Shown: in pieces, positions 1,027-56,913 of the stretch
How the letters are laid out: every line of letters starts with the position of its first letter
Position numbering within the stretch: the stretch's first letter is position 1
Program-made: the position numbers and the translations under genes
Origin: a virus
Taxonomy: Duplodnaviria; Caudoviricetes
Direction: 5' to 3' (one strand)
Length of the DNA stretch: 64,000 nt
Virus record (IMG/VR): IMGVR_UViG_3300010262_000138
Location: 1-64,000 of that record
The notes under the pieces: generated by a model
The model's input: the letters and a program-made list of their open reading frames with translations, nothing else
Database searches by the model: none
Told to the model about the DNA's origin: nothing

Positions 1027-2325
1027 ATGTATAATCGAGAAGCAGAAGGGACCCTCATTCTGTCAAAAACAGAGCTTGAGCGTAAAAGAAAATTGACTGA
1101 GTTAAAGCACATATTGAAAACGATAGAGAACCCGGAAAATAACACGAAATATATTCATTTGGCTGGTACAAATGGCAAAGGTTCTACTAGCGCGATGCTA
1201 GCTTCAATTTTTCATCACGCCGGATATAAAACTGGACTTTTTACATCTCCACACATTGAACGTATTTATGAAAGAATCCAAGTCAATGGTGATCCAATTA
1301 CTCCAAGTGATTTTTACACTTTAATGAACTATACCAAGCAGATTTACGCTGATTGCCAATTGAAGCCGTCAGTATATGCGTTGCTAACCGCAGTAGGATT
1401 TTTGTATTTTCAGAAATGTAAATGTGATATCGTAATTTTAGAAACAGGATTAGGCGGAGAAAACGATCCTACTAATGCAATCTCTAAAACAGAAGCTGCG
1501 GTTTTTACTAATATCGGGTTGGATCATATTCCATCGCTGGGAACAACCGTTGAAGAGATCGCTTCTAATAAGGCGGGTATTCTTAAACAGGGATGCGATG
1601 CGATTGCCTATCCTTCCGAGGCAGCGGCGGTCAGGATACTAGATAGGGCATGTCAAGCAAAGAATATTCCTTTGAGACAGTCCGACTTCTCCATGATTGT
1701 ATTGCATCATAGCGATGAGAAGGGGCAGATTTTTGATTATCGTGACAGAAAAAATCTTTATATTGGACTTTTGGGTGAACATCAAGTTTGCAACGCCGCT
1801 CTTGCACTTGATACCATTGATACGATGCGAACCAGAGGGTGGAATATCTCAGAGCAGTCTGTTAGGGAAGGGTTGAGGCTTACTCAATGGCCTTGCAGAC
1901 TGGAGGTGATCCATCACAACCCCACGGTCATTTTAGATGTTGTAACCAATTCTCTCGGAGCATGTAAATTTCAAAAAGCAATAAATCAATATTTCCCTAA
2001 TAAGCGTCCCGTTCTCATTCTGGGCAGTTTAAGTTATAAACAGTACCTAAATCTTTACGATATTCTTATCAGCGTGGCGGATAGTATTGTTGCCGTCACA
2101 GCGTCAGGCAGTAATGGCTGCAATGCCTTTCAGCTTGCCAGAAGTTTGGAAAATTACGGTAAAAAGGTTTATGCCTGCAGTTCCATTTCGGACGGAGCAT
2201 GGCTTGCAGAGAAACTATGCGGTCCGGAAGGAATTATTGCGGGAGTAGGCACATTTCATATTATGGCGGAACTGAAAGAATATTTTTCCGGCAAAGAACG
2301 GAGGGATCTCTATGCCGCGCTATAA
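1027..2325 (+). CDS. folC: FolC-like Mur-ligase family protein (folylpolyglutamate synthase homolog, divergent)
   Basis: HLAGTNGKGST P-loop, TSPH, ETGLGG..D.TN, IGLDH, WPCRLE; canonical DGAHN is replaced by DVVTN. Confidence 0.8.
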   Translation: MYNREAEGTLILSKTELERKRKLTELKHILKTIENPENNTKYIHLAGTNGKGSTSAMLASIFHHAGYKTGLFTSPHIERIYERIQVNGDPITPSDFYTLMNYTKQIYADCQLKPSVYALLTAVGFLYFQKCKCDIVILETGLGGENDPTNAISKTEAAVFTNIGLDHIPSLGTTVEEIASNKAGILKQGCDAIAYPSEAAAVRILDRACQAKNIPLRQSDFSMIVLHHSDEKGQIFDYRDRKNLYIGLLGEHQVCNAALALDTIDTMRTRGWNISEQSVREGLRLTQWPCRLEVIHHNPTVILDVVTNSLGACKFQKAINQYFPNKRPVLILGSLSYKQYLNLYDILISVADSIVAVTASGSNGCNAFQLARSLENYGKKVYACSSISDGAWLAEKLCGPEGIIAGVGTFHIMAELKEYFSGKERRDLYAAL

Positions 2326-3064
2326 AGGGGTTGACGTGTCAGAACATCAGGGTAAAATCAATTGGATGGCCATGAAAGAAGATGGAATTCAGTTTGCGAT
2401 TATAAGAATAGGCTGGACTCACTATGAAGGCGGGATAACATTAGATGATCGCTATCTGGAAAATATCAGAGGGGCACAGGCGGCGGGGATTCCAATAGGA
2501 GCTTACGTCTATGGCTACGACCTCAATGTTGAAGCGGCCGAGACTTCCGCCAAAATGGTGGCGAAAGAGTTAAGCAACTATCGATTTGAATATCCCGTAT
2601 ATTATGACCAAGAGTACGAACCCAAGCTTCAGCTTCTCACACGACAGCAGCGCACAGATATTTGTCGAGTATTTTTGGAAACTCTTCAAAAGAACGGATA
2701 TTTTCCGGGAATATATGCAAGTAAGGATTGGTTTGAAAATTGGGTTTTTGACTCCCAGCTTGTAGATTATGAACATTGGGTGGCACAATACGCAGACACA
2801 TGCAGCTATTCCGGAACATACGGGGTATGGCAATATGGAGTTATTGGGAATAAGGGAGTCAAAGGAAAAGAATATACGTTATGCGGATCAATTGCCGGGA
2901 TACAGACCAATTGTGACCTTGATTTTTCATATCGTGATTATCCCGCTTTAATCAAAAGATCGCCGCTGAATGGATGGGGAAAACCCCCTGATAAGACTCC
3001 GCTGAATCACACTACACTGTTAACAGAACTGAAGGAACTTTTAAGAAAATATGGTGAACTATAA
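2312..3064 (+). CDS. Glycoside hydrolase family 25 muramidase (endolysin-like)
   Basis: GVDVSEHQG, FAIIRIG, PVYYDQE (DxE), WVAQY, WQY, CDLD motifs; overlaps the FolC-like gene end. Confidence 0.9.
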   Translation: MPRYKGVDVSEHQGKINWMAMKEDGIQFAIIRIGWTHYEGGITLDDRYLENIRGAQAAGIPIGAYVYGYDLNVEAAETSAKMVAKELSNYRFEYPVYYDQEYEPKLQLLTRQQRTDICRVFLETLQKNGYFPGIYASKDWFENWVFDSQLVDYEHWVAQYADTCSYSGTYGVWQYGVIGNKGVKGKEYTLCGSIAGIQTNCDLDFSYRDYPALIKRSPLNGWGKPPDKTPLNHTTLLTELKELLRKYGEL

Positions 3065-5081: not shown

Positions 5082-5173
5082 ATTACATCCTCCCAACATG
5101 CGGCATTGCTTCGTCTGGTTTCAGTATAACAAAACGTTTCCGCCAAAGCCAAAGAAATAAAAGAGAAAAAAGG

Positions 5174-51287: not shown

Positions 51288-51584
51288 TTACTTTTCCAAA
51301 AGATCCTTATTAGGCTTAAAAATGACCTGAACGTGAGCCGGCTTTACGGTCCTTTTACCATTCAGACCTGACACATAGGTACGCTCTTTGATTTTAGCAA
51401 GGGTGAACCGGCCAAAGCCGTACAGATTCACATCGTTACCGGTCTGAAGCTGTTCTTTCAGCAACTCGCAGAATGCTGCGATGGTTTCTTTGCTCTTCTT
51501 CTTAGTAATTCCAGTCTTCTCAGCAAAAAGCTCTGTCAGTTCTTCTTTGAAGATGGTAGGGTTATTGTAACTGATAATAATCAC
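51288..51584 (-). CDS. hup: HU-family DNA-binding protein
   Basis: K.EL....AEKTGITKK, V.L.GFG.F......R.......G.....PA...V.FKP.K.L. Confidence 0.85.
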   Translation of the reverse strand: MIIISYNNPTIFKEELTELFAEKTGITKKKSKETIAAFCELLKEQLQTGNDVNLYGFGRFTLAKIKERTYVSGLNGKRTVKPAHVQVIFKPNKDLLEK

Positions 51585-53042: not shown

Positions 53043-53816
53043 TCAACTTTTTTCTTTTGCAGTTGACCTTTTGCGTTCCTCGCGCTTCTTCATCTTAAAA
53101 TATCTGCTCCTGCCATCCCCTAAACATTCAGAGCAATAAATGCGGTTACGGTTCTTTGTCTGCGGCATCCAGCGTCCGCACTCACAGCAGCGTGAGAAAT
53201 TTTCTCCCTTAAAAGCCCTGTAAGCATATCCAAGATCCTGAAAATCTTCGTTGTTCAAGTGAATCGCCACATTTCCATCTGGGGAGAATATCAAAGGGCG
53301 GGCGCTTAAATTCATGCATCCATCTCCATACTCTACCATACCCGCCTCGTAGAGCCTTCGCACCATGTCAGTACGTTTCTTTTTGCTTAGAGATAAATTG
53401 GCCCGTTCCGCTACCTCTTTCCAGCGGCTCCCGGCAATAAAACCTTTTGACTTTTCGCTTTTTACCATTTCAAATCTTGCAAGTGCCACACAGGTAAACA
53501 GAAAACATTCCAAGTCCCTGTCTTTCAGGTTGCCTATTATCTCAATTTCTGATGAATAGATTGGTATAGACAAAATCCTATTCAGTGGAAATTTATCTCC
53601 GTTTGATACATATGTAGGGACTTTTTGGAACAACGTAGATCCTTCTGGGAGAGATTTTTCATAAGGCTCTATCAGCTTTCTGACTCGCGCCTCCGCATCG
53701 CTTTTATCCATCCCGCTCTGTACCAGATACCTTGCAGCATACATCGATGCCTCGAATGGGTCTGCTAAAACAGCAGACCCCTCGGTAATATCCTTTGCAT
53801 ACTGATATTCATTCAA
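53043..53816 (-). CDS. Phage protein with C-terminal Zn ribbon downstream of the RNAP gene
   Basis: C.ECG........R.YC.EC; overlaps the RNAP stop. Confidence 0.65.
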   Translation of the reverse strand: MNEYQYAKDITEGSAVLADPFEASMYAARYLVQSGMDKSDAEARVRKLIEPYEKSLPEGSTLFQKVPTYVSNGDKFPLNRILSIPIYSSEIEIIGNLKDRDLECFLFTCVALARFEMVKSEKSKGFIAGSRWKEVAERANLSLSKKKRTDMVRRLYEAGMVEYGDGCMNLSARPLIFSPDGNVAIHLNNEDFQDLGYAYRAFKGENFSRCCECGRWMPQTKNRNRIYCSECLGDGRSRYFKMKKREERKRSTAKEKS

Positions 53817-54918
53817 AATTACCTTGTAAATTTACCTGACCTCCTACATCAATAGCGCATGGAGAGAATCTTTCACCGGCATACTCAACGGCGCCGTTTT
53901 GATCAATCTCCAAATAACACAGCTTATTTCCGGATTCTTTCAAAAGATTGCGGCAAATTTGTTCAGAGCATACCAACCACGCAAACCGCTTTGACCTTTC
54001 TGATTTATAACACAGGTCAACGAGAATGTTACATAATTCCTCTGCGTTACTGACTGCCTGCCCGCACTCTGCCGTAAAATCTTCAATTATTACTGTCTTT
54101 GCCTTCTTGCTTTCTTCTTCAGATATGCGGTAAAGGCGAGCATTCTTTTCGAACTGGTCCATCTGGGAACAAAAGTCGTGATAGATTTTTTGAATCTTGG
54201 CAAAGGCCCTGCTGCTATACTCTTTATCGCTTTTTAGTAGGGAAGAGTCAAACGGATCTGCCTTATGCTCCCGCGTTTTACGAGCCTCAAAATACGCTTC
54301 CACAATATGACATAAACGGTTCATCGTACCGCCGCAGTCAATCACAGGGTTAAGACTCGCTACCTGGTCTAAGAACTCCCGCATACGCGGGGTAGGGGAC
54401 TCTTTATTTCTCAACTCTTCTATGCTTACACCGAACTCCATTCTGCAACGAGTCTGCGTCCGGTCTATGTAGTTGCGATAACGGCTTAGTTCTTCAGGAT
54501 ACCGATATATCATAAAATATGGTTTACGGTCCGCCACAATGCGTATGTTGATTGGATCGTCTGTCTCTGCGGCGGATTTACGTTTGTACCAATGTTTTGG
54601 CATCCCGTTGGAAATAATTCCTTTAAGTTTGTCGATACAATTCTGTTGTATAAATTGCCCGGAAATAACACGATATTCCAACTCTTCGTATTCTCTTTCT
54701 CCTTTAGAGAATCCCGCCTGAATATCTGTCTGGGTTGTGATTCTATTTGTCACCGAGCCAATATCATCTCCGAACCCCGCGATATTAGCCGCAATGAAAT
54801 CGCTCTCGCTCGGAATCTTTTTAGGTGCCTTCTTCTGTTCGCATTGAATAGGAAGAGTTTCCTTGTGACAACCCACCAGAACGGGATTGTCGGTCAGGAA
54901 GATTAAATCTCCATCTTT
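53809..54918 (-). CDS. yonO: YonO-like RNA polymerase, exon 2
   Basis: Begins K-D-G-D-L-I-F-L-T-D-N after omega-G; IG.VTN, Q...IDK.KG, KPYFM.Y.Y motifs. Confidence 0.85.
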   Translation of the reverse strand, partial: KDGDLIFLTDNPVLVGCHKETLPIQCEQKKAPKKIPSESDFIAANIAGFGDDIGSVTNRITTQTDIQAGFSKGEREYEELEYRVISGQFIQQNCIDKLKGIISNGMPKHWYKRKSAAETDDPINIRIVADRKPYFMIYRYPEELSRYRNYIDRTQTRCRMEFGVSIEELRNKESPTPRMREFLDQVASLNPVIDCGGTMNRLCHIVEAYFEARKTREHKADPFDSSLLKSDKEYSSRAFAKIQKIYHDFCSQMDQFEKNARLYRISEEESKKAKTVIIEDFTAECGQAVSNAEELCNILVDLCYKSERSKRFAWLVCSEQICRNLLKESGNKLCYLEIDQNGAVEYAGERFSPCAIDVGGQVNLQGNFE

Positions 54919-55169
54919 CCTTTATACTCCATGTCACCATAGAGAGTAGACTATCTCTTCACCCCATAGGGTGCCCGGCGCTTCCACGCAGGAATTTCAC
55001 CTGACATGTACTTCCTTTCGGAATAGTCGTTACACGTTCTCAAAAGAGCTTCGCACGGTATTGTCTCGGGAAGAGTTCTACCGTTAGCACAGCAAAGCTG
55101 CACACCCCGCAATTACGGGTTCACCGGGTTTTCACCGCGCCGTTTCCGACGCGGGGGACTGCTTTATCA
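54919..55169 (-). ncRNA. Group I self-splicing intron (251 nt, ORF-less)
   Basis: P1 GGAU|U..AGUCC with U-G wobble; P3 CCCGGUG/CGCCGGG; R GUGUAACGACUA; S GAAGAGAUAGUCU; terminal G; splicing restores NGAD-KDGD. Confidence 0.92.
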
Positions 55170-56816
55170 ATCCGCTCCATTCAATGCATGGCAGGTCATA
55201 TCATGGCAGTTTAAAAGCGTAACTGTATTCATATACCGATACCAATAGTTTGCCTCATCAGACCTGTGTATCTTCATCTTCCTGATATTATTGTGATTGC
55301 TCATTGGGGCTCGGAAACATACAACATCATCTGTCCCTTTATCGTGCCAATATCTGTTATATAGCTCCCCGGCTTTCAGCAGCCCTGTCACCGGTAATCC
55401 CCAAATGCTCTGGCACAACGCAATTGGATCGCCGCATATTACAGAGAAGTTACCCTCTACCTTAACCTTCCCGAACTTCGACTCATTTACCCTCTTCTTA
55501 ATCAGCGTCTTAATCTGATTGCGTACAAAGGGGTCTCCAAGCATCCTTCGGTCTGCCTGCAGAGCCGTAACCCAATCAAAATCTCCGCTGAATGCATTCT
55601 TCTCTGTAATACCAGTACCCCGTAAAAAGAGAAGGGTACGGTAATAATCGTCACCCATTGCATCGCTGAGTTCGTGCAGGGTAGGGGAGACCAACTCATT
55701 TATCTCATCATCGCTAAGATCATAGCTCTGAATGAACTGATAATTAAGGCGCCGCTCTTTATCAAGCTCTCTCGAAGTCACTTTTGTAGCTGAAAAGGTA
55801 TATCCATTTACACTGCAATTTTGCAGATAATCATCGATATTTGCGTAAGAATCCCATAATTTCAGCATAGAAGCAGTCAAAATCAGCTCAATTTCGTTGA
55901 TTTTGTGCTTATTTCCCCAGATGTCTACCGCCGCATCCTTTTGTGCTATTGATGACGCAAATTCATGAAAATCAAATGTAAATGCCATACCTTTACAAAA
56001 ACTATTGCGCAGACAAAGCCCAGACGGAAGATAGTCAAGCTGAAGCTCTTCCTGCCATCGCATAGCTAGGGCGGGGGACATCACTCCGTATCCATCGCTA
56101 TCAATCAACTCTACGTCTCCGTTTTTGATAACTTCCATACTTGGTTCTCCGGTAGGTGAGTCCTTCAGAAGAATGTAATCCGAGTTGAAGTGAACAACGC
56201 AGTCGTCTACGACAAGAACCCCTTTTGGTATACTGAGAGGGGTTGATGCGGAACAAATCAAGGCGCGATATGCCTCTAGCTTCGCCGGCACAAACTCTTT
56301 ATCCATGCGTCGCCCATTGTCCGCTCGTCGCCGCAGTTCTTCTAAAAGTTCCGCTCCATTCCTTGTATACTCTGAAATAAATACAACGGTTGAGTTTTTT
56401 ACGCCCCCGGTAGTCCCGACAAATCGTTGGTAGGTCATTCCATTGACCTTAAACCCTTTACACGCCCGGAGAAAATCCTTATTGGAATTACACACCAAGC
56501 AGATGTATTCCGGTACGAATTGGATCTCATTCAATGCAGAATACAGCAATTTTATGCGGTTTTCCACCTCTTTTGAACGTTTTTCTCTCCGCAATTCACG
56601 TAATTCTGTGCGAATTTTCTCGAATTTATCCAGATTTTTATGAAGATCAATACCGGCTATCTGCTCGATCATACGGATACAGGTGCTTTCCGCGAGTGAA
56701 ATCACAGCCCCGGACCTCTTGGCGTCGCGCAGCGAGATATTGTAATCCCAGTTGGACTTCCTCAATTCTTCGGTGGATAACTTCAAAACCTGCCTGAGAT
56801 AAGAATACTGCTTTAT
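55170..56816 (-). CDS. yonO: YonO-like single-subunit RNA polymerase (RdRP-related two-barrel), exon 1
   Basis: DG.G..SP, R..F.KGM, LT.SM.KLW..Y, LNYQF.Q, R.P, LNGAD; start probably ATA 56816. Confidence 0.85.
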
Positions 56817-56913
56817 GAAATCAGCCTCCTTTTTTGTGCATACAGTAATAGAAAATGAGAATAGACAACCCAAAACGATAATCTATTCGAAGTGGATTAA
56901 GAGTTCCCCAAAA

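Follow-up and report, generated by a model that had tools for sequence, protein, structure and literature searches.

On comparative sequence evidence, a YonO-like RNA polymerase gene in a phage genome fragment of 64,000 nt (the window, meaning the whole stretch of DNA analysed here) is very probably split in its DxDGD magnesium-binding loop by a selfish group I intron of subgroup IA, the usual phage type, that would be removed by splicing. The gene lies on the minus strand and is broken by 251 nt, and the reading frames on either side of the break rejoin the sequence DKDGD (Table 1). Exon 1 ends in CHALNGAD, with GAT as its last codon and TGA TAA directly after it, and exon 2 opens at 54918 with AAA GAT GGA GAT, encoding KDGD (protein start KDGDLIF, KDGDLIFLTDNPV). 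The aspartate of LNGAD that closes exon 1 is the first of the metal triad, FRAPM being located upstream in the same exon, and the remaining two aspartates of the triad are supplied by KDGD in exon 2; the complete DxDGD triad (D568 + KDGD) is present only once the exons are joined. All 568 + 369 codons are open, and all family-invariant residues are kept in both exons. The joined exons encode a protein of ~937 aa, and uninterrupted homologs measure 860-962 aa; the true start of exon 1 may lie ~20 codons downstream of the listed start.

Table 1. Features of the interrupted polymerase gene and its intron, in window positions.
Feature	Position	Strand	Evidence or remark
Exon 1, YonO-like RNA polymerase gene	55170..56873	(-)	568 aa in ORF list; Pfam, PHROGs and tblastn matches
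Exon 2	53809..54918	(-)	369 aa + stop (stop 53809-53811); translation, phrog_35857, phrog_8308 positions 552-824
Predicted group I intron, 251 nt, without homing endonuclease ORF	54919..55169	(-)	RF00028; covariation; intron-less homologs set junction
Two in-frame stops UGA UAA, first six intron bases	55164..55169	(-)	Sequence
P1: exon GGAU + intron UG pair with CAGUCC internal guide	55156..55173	(-)	U.G wobble at 5' splice site
P2, 8 bp, GAAA loop	55135..55154	(-)	4/8 pairs compensatory
P3 5' strand CCCGGUG	55122..55128	(-)	Partner 54974-54980; 3/7 pairs compensatory
Two extra hairpins between P3 and P4	55087..55119 (55106-55119 + 55087-55103)	(-)	100% paired, 2 compensatory pairs each
P4-P5 hairpin, A-rich internal loop	55055..55084	(-)	Alignment; L028 insertion in terminal loop
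P6/P6a	55034..55054	(-)	GCG/CGU closing pair unique to window copy, itself compensated
P7 5' strand GACUA, guanosine-binding helix	55024..55028	(-)	Pseudoknot with 54949-54953; equals RF00028 consensus
P7.1 (55012-55023, short UUCC-GAAA-GGAA) + P7.2 (54985-55008)	54985..55023	(-)	4/4 and 7/9 pairs compensatory
P3 3' strand CGCCGGG	54974..54980	(-)	Alignment
P8	54960..54973	(-)	5/6 pairs compensatory
P7 3' strand UAGUC	54949..54953	(-)	RF00028 match; alignment
P9 hairpin	54927..54944	(-)	RF00028 match; alignment
Terminal G (omega-G), 3' splice site after it	54919	(-)	Sequence; only in-frame end; same position in all homologous introns
Site 2, equivalent window position	~54631-54636		Window uninterrupted there; relatives' introns 286-393 nt or ~1.0-1.2 kb

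The exon before the break ends in U and the inserted sequence ends in G, and 55170|54918 is the sole cut that is both in frame and rebuilds D-K-D-G-D; a cut placed one base before this, or where the Rfam match described below ends, gives a product that is out of frame or stopped. Two genuine genes whose products are translated separately and assemble without splicing, as with the split beta' subunits of jumbo phages, could also explain two adjacent reading frames, and the annotation of phage c-st does list two separate genes. Here, however, the break falls inside a five-residue metal loop, and translation of the exon-2 frame could begin no earlier than the GTG at 54876, 14 codons past KDGD, so that a separately translated second half would lose two catalytic aspartates; the spacer, moreover, is a conserved ribozyme and not an intergenic region. 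Since the first start in the exon-2 frame comes after the motif, this arrangement is not credible, and we hold it to be exceedingly improbable. An intein was also considered and was ruled out by the stop codons and the structured RNA.

A scan of the whole window with Rfam at gathering thresholds returned no match, because the intron scores 37.4 bits against the group I model RF00028, whose curated gathering cut-off of 50 bits is an annotation threshold and not a biological criterion. In E-value mode (701-nt search) the full RF00028 model covered 54927-55209 on the minus strand at E 6.5e-8, and scanning the 112-kb viral record to which the window belongs gave the same match (E 2.5e-9 per genome). 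Homologous introns at the same site also score 34-44 bits against RF00028, and no other Rfam family matches within the intron in E-value mode. The RF00028 match is above chance, since the homologous introns covary and intron-less homologs are contiguous exactly at the junction. The original prediction, made from the letters alone, had placed a 251-nt ORF-less group I intron at 54919-55169, between LNGAD and KDGD, with a GAT|AAA junction that rebuilds DKDGD; reading frames, RF00028 and covariation bear out these coordinates exactly, and the contiguous homologs confirm the junction. A 53-aa TTG-initiated ORF (window 54951-55112, minus strand) lies inside the ribozyme core; it is unlike any endonuclease and is probably a chance frame.

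We derived the structure of the intron from six homologous introns at this site (site 1) that come from different phages, in an intron-family alignment of 349 columns on which RNAalifold was also run. A structure from P1 to P9 with the P3/P7 pseudoknot leaves 97% of cells paired, and 40 of its 82 pairs are compensatory among the six introns; none of 500 shuffles reached these values, and sliding the partners by 1-3 columns left ~40% paired. P1, P3, P7 and omega-G, all named in the original prediction, are present in this covarying structure, with the terminal G at 54919. P1 is short, consisting of four exon pairs and two intron pairs, and its GGAU/GUCC pairing is invariant in the six introns; in L028, where the pairing is CGAU/GUCG, the exon carries a synonymous change (GCC for GCG) and the guide has the matching GUCG. 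All six introns have the same P7 strands, GACUA/UAGUC, and the same joining segments beside them, and these equal the Rfam consensus. At P6, the window copy alone has GC at alignment column pair 146/172, where the other five sequences have CG. The extra hairpins between P3 and P4 stand outside the canonical core, which in canonical group I introns has only a 3-nt joiner there. P7.1 and P7.2 lie between P7 and the 3' strand of P3, a feature that we take to mark subgroup IA, the usual phage type. The element is thus covered from end to end by a conserved group I architecture and is a predicted guanosine-dependent self-splicing intron. In a side comparison, the P6-P7-P7.1 stretch (window 55008-55063, minus strand) was 73-91% identical to unannotated or misannotated stretches in phage records from Klebsiella, Acinetobacter, Enterococcus and other hosts, an identity that suggests unannotated group I introns there too.

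Two features of the window copy might be taken to mean that the intron no longer splices and that the polymerase gene has become a pseudogene, decaying within a defective prophage, namely its sub-threshold Rfam score and the absence of a recognisable P10, there being no complement to AAAGAU beside the guide. The short P1 and a reduced P7.1, the latter shared with L097, are further weak points of this copy. Relatives have a P10 of CUUU/AAAG or longer, with 6 bp in L091 and 4 bp in L092 and L097. P10 is dispensable in some group I introns. Against decay, both exons are open and retain the family-invariant residues, every helix is intact, and the change that this lineage has made in P6 is compensated. 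In addition, L097, which belongs to a distant phage, has the same minimal form of 252 nt, and a protein cluster 97% identical stops at the same NGAD. A dead gene is therefore very unlikely, and we infer that the intron is a working one that is spliced in vivo. A sequencing run guessed to be RNA yielded only pieces of 38-56 nt on the conserved core, without joints; their several mismatches indicate that they come from other introns.

The occupancy of the site was surveyed in the best 80 IMG/VR loci, in 80 loci of species-representative bacterial genomes (GTDB) and at the ends of protein clusters. The gene is uninterrupted between residue 568 and the first residue of exon 2 in 72 of the 80 viral and 69 of the 80 bacterial-genome loci, as in L007, where the exons are contiguous at 5120/5121, and homologous introns are found in others. 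Among the best 120 protein clusters, 79 are contiguous, mostly as ALNGAD-K-DGD, where K is sometimes replaced by F, A, H or C, and DKDGD is the commonest form among uninterrupted homologs; another 25 end 0-18 codons past NG[AM]D. Intron-plus and intron-minus alleles coexist among relatives that are ~50% identical in exon 1.

Exon 1 matches the Pfam family RdRP (PF05183) with 40.3 bits against a cut-off of 23.8, and it matches phrog_25339 and phrog_8308 of the PHROGs collection; of the 847 positions of phrog_8308, 56-550 are covered by exon 1 and 552-824 by exon 2. By tblastn we found the yonO genes of the SPbeta group (E 4e-15 to 5e-19), along with 'RdRP' genes of Enterocloster phages and phage c-st. 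In the alignment, YonO LLQFD|NDGD corresponds to ALNGAD|KDGD and the R-x-P motif upstream of the triad, FRAPM, to YonO LRSPH; D559, D561 and D563 are invariant across 32 homologs. A sequence search of the PDB with exon 1 gave no match. The fold was examined on P0011, a homolog without interruption whose sequence is 61% identical to exon 1, modelled with AF2 from 32 aligned sequences (pLDDT 87.3, pTM 0.80). With Foldseek, this model of the homolog matched plant RDR2 (7w82, E 3.9e-16) and QDE-1 (2j7n, TM 0.50), further the two-barrel polymerases P74 gp62 and crAss phi14:2 gp66 of phages, and then bacterial msRNAP beta', and it has two double-psi beta-barrels. On these sequence matches and the model of the homolog, the host gene is a predicted YonO-like, or RdRP-like, two-barrel single-chain RNA polymerase, and the YonO-like assignment of the original prediction holds on Pfam, tblastn and fold alike. 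YonO of SPbeta is the DNA-dependent RNA polymerase for late genes (PMC5467207), and by extrapolation from this enzyme, to which it is 23-26% identical, the polymerase of the window phage would serve late transcription as well.

We searched for homologous introns with a DNA pattern made of the intron 3' end and the start of exon 2, and with protein-guided locus searches. The DNA pattern scan of genome contigs gave no matches, and the intron-family sequence profile detected no other copies in the window. Introns occupy the same codon boundary in L006 (308 nt), L091 and L092 (303 nt each), L096 (291 nt), L097 (252 nt) and L028, L031 and L095 (1018 nt each). The three 1018-nt introns carry a 225-aa ORF with NUMOD4 and HNH_3 domains in the loop of P5, the terminal loop of the P4-P5 hairpin, and L093 retains the end of another such endonuclease ORF. 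The endonuclease in these related introns marks the family as a selfish mobile element. No homing endonuclease ORF is found in the 251 nt of the window copy, which is either a derivative or an ancestor of the endonuclease-bearing form, the ORF having been lost or never having been there.

When used as a profile, the site-1 intron sequences also pick up introns elsewhere in the polymerase gene family, at two further positions, so that three positions are known: D|xDGD (site 1a, the position in the window), DxD|xD (site 1b, 6 nt downstream) and a site ~95 codons into exon 2 (site 2, QQNxI|DK). Site 1b is occupied in L133, L141, L167 and L179. Site 2 is occupied in six of the 80 viral and seven of the 80 genome loci; its carriers are L041, L042, L045, L048, L052, L070, L089, L091, L093, L096, L097, L100, L102, L112, L134, L135, L157 and L167. 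The site-2 inserts share the core of the family, and those of L089 and L157 score as group I. Sites 1a and 1b are each preceded by GGAU, which fits the same GUCC guide. Two introns of the family occur together in one phage in L091, L096, L097 and L167.

Because the intron lies inside the metal-binding catalytic motif, the enzyme would be made only after RNA splicing. The host polymerase would transcribe the gene as one pre-mRNA, and ribosomes that reach the intron would terminate at UGA UAA, which would leave the ribozyme free to fold. Exon GGAU would pair with the guide GUCC and free guanosine would attack after the wobble U, whereupon the terminal G would direct exon ligation to a GAU-AAA mRNA encoding the full-length protein with an intact ALNGADKDGD; unspliced RNA would give only the 568-aa fragment, which lacks two of the three catalytic aspartates. 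The intron would persist because its imprecise deletion in the catalytic loop would kill the enzyme, and the catalytic-loop position has been described as a classic refuge in which imprecise loss is lethal (PMC12908238). It is reasonable to suppose that late transcription in this phage depends on splicing.

The original prediction had gone further and suggested a possible GTP/Mg-sensitive checkpoint. In full, such a checkpoint would let GTP, Mg2+, translation or the state of growth govern splicing efficiency and thereby set when the phage turns to YonO-dependent late transcription. In its favour, no active polymerase would arise without splicing, T4 introns are spliced in a manner dependent on translation and on the state of growth, and a c-di-GMP riboswitch controls one group I intron of Clostridioides. 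The need for guanosine and Mg2+, though, is common to all group I introns and does not by itself make a regulator, and cells normally contain far more GTP than a group I ribozyme needs. In the window copy the ribozyme helices account for all 251 nt, with no sensor or riboswitch-like element and no match to another Rfam family; most close relatives express the same gene intron-free, and the homing endonuclease of related introns is the mark of a parasite. The checkpoint thus finds no support, and we consider it very improbable and do not retain this part of the prediction; the window copy is best read as an endonuclease-less mobile intron that would splice constitutively.

A close parallel exists in phage c-st (AP008983), whose polymerase is 41% identical and has the same catalytic loop split by an ORF-less insertion of 317 nt (L003:4666-4982; AP008983 ~165.5-165.9 kb) at DMD|GD, 6 nt beyond the site in the window phage. 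This AT-rich insertion shares the GGAU/GUCC P1, the GACUA/UAGUC P7 and the terminal G. It was missed both by Rfam at E 0.001 and by the nhmmer profile of the family, and since neither detects it, we assigned it as group I-like by eye. The two halves of the c-st gene have been annotated since 2005 as CST179, 'YonO-homolog (N-ter only)', and CST178, 'hypothetical protein', and a comparative study that counts c-st BAE47877.1 among YonO-like enzymes does not mention the split (PMC7824862). Our search of the open-access literature found no paper that names the c-st insertion an intron and none that links YonO-like genes with introns; what came up on YonO together with introns or homing endonucleases was unrelated.

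In Gram-positive and T-even phages, group I introns are known from T4 td, nrdB and sunY, Twort orf142 and nrdE, and SPbeta bnrdE/bnrdF, and the DNA polymerase intron of SPO1/SP82 carries the HNH endonuclease I-HmuI. Like these (PMC12908238), the window intron is a small ribozyme with P7.1 and P7.2 that sits at the catalytic codons of an essential gene, its relatives carry an HNH-type endonuclease (here NUMOD4+HNH_3) in a peripheral loop, and plus and minus alleles coexist. Unlike these, it resides in a YonO-type single-chain RNA polymerase gene and not in a gene of DNA metabolism, and the window copy has two extra P3-P4 hairpins and lacks both an ORF and an evident P10. Mobile introns also occur in the multisubunit RNA polymerase genes of jumbo phages, as in gp273/274 of 201phi2-1 (PMC2919709), and in nucleus-forming phages intron endonucleases act as weapons of competition (PMC12908238). 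The jumbo-phage introns likewise interrupt the phage's own RNA polymerase gene, but that enzyme is of the beta/beta'-like multisubunit kind, whereas the window intron belongs to the single-chain YonO/RdRP-like lineage and cuts within the DxDGD triad itself. SPbeta YonO is a homologous two-barrel single-chain RNA polymerase with DxDGD (PMC5467207), encoded by an uninterrupted gene of 839 aa. Gene order is similar in SPbeta, with an HU-like gene downstream (yonN; window HU gene 51288-51584), but in the window phage three genes, an unknown 257-aa ORF, ClpP and PhoH, lie between the polymerase and the HU gene.

Introns in multisubunit jumbo-phage RNA polymerase genes were thus known, and a YonO-like host had not previously been noted in the open-access literature that we searched. 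That a group I intron should interrupt an essential phage gene at a catalytic codon is textbook and will not surprise a specialist. The consequence for annotation is practical: annotation often breaks the YonO-type polymerase genes of gut and clostridial phages into two or three genes that look unrelated, and the default Rfam cut-off misses such introns. Examples are CST179/CST178 of c-st, the PHROGs collection, in which the halves form separate families (phrog_25339 and phrog_35857) besides phrog_8308, and a fifth of the closest protein clusters (25 of the best 120), which end at the site; the expectation that automated annotation would call two broken genes was thus correct. Expression of these little-studied single-chain RNA polymerases requires the spliced sequence. 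With one intron family at no fewer than three positions in one gene family, these phages also allow intron site choice, homing and the loss of endonucleases to be studied in a compact natural setting. It is conceivable, though unlikely, that the rate of splicing times the early-to-late switch and that endonuclease-bearing copies cut the intron-less polymerase genes of co-infecting relatives while ORF-less copies protect the site; if so, late transcription of co-infecting relatives would be shut down, and the polymerase gene would be the centre of a system of competition and immunity.

The neighbouring genes (HU-like, PhoH, ClpP, metallophosphatase, antirepressor) fit an SPbeta-like phage. Several studies of pig and cattle gut have yielded assemblies with near-identical or identical DNA that includes the intron, with contigs that span it and show no differences, and the nearest prophage copy lies in a metagenome-assembled genome (MAG) of Lawsonibacter (Oscillospiraceae); we place the window phage among the SPbeta-like phages of Clostridia in pig and cattle gut. 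The 257-aa ORF (window 53043-53816, minus strand) overlaps the polymerase stop by 8 nt, has no Pfam match and contains CxxC pairs near its C-terminus. In PMBT24, BUCT082 and c-st, too, the polymerase gene is followed by a gene at the equivalent position, which in c-st is CST177 with the annotation 'YonO C-ter only', and the product of the 257-aa ORF may be a polymerase cofactor.

Such phages are intron-rich. The related phage L091 has two more group I introns (1509-1841 and 2038-2359, minus strand; 78.8 and 92.7 bits, above the Rfam cut-off) a few kb from its polymerase gene. The genome of the window phage itself contains, outside the window, a second group I intron at G000:C1:95234-95548 on the plus strand (locus L001:1501-1815; RF00028, 42.2 bits), which splits a gene like that of DNA polymerase III alpha (DnaE/PolC) after ...SSNYQFG, with exon 2 resuming at ...NHSIAYCMIGYQ.
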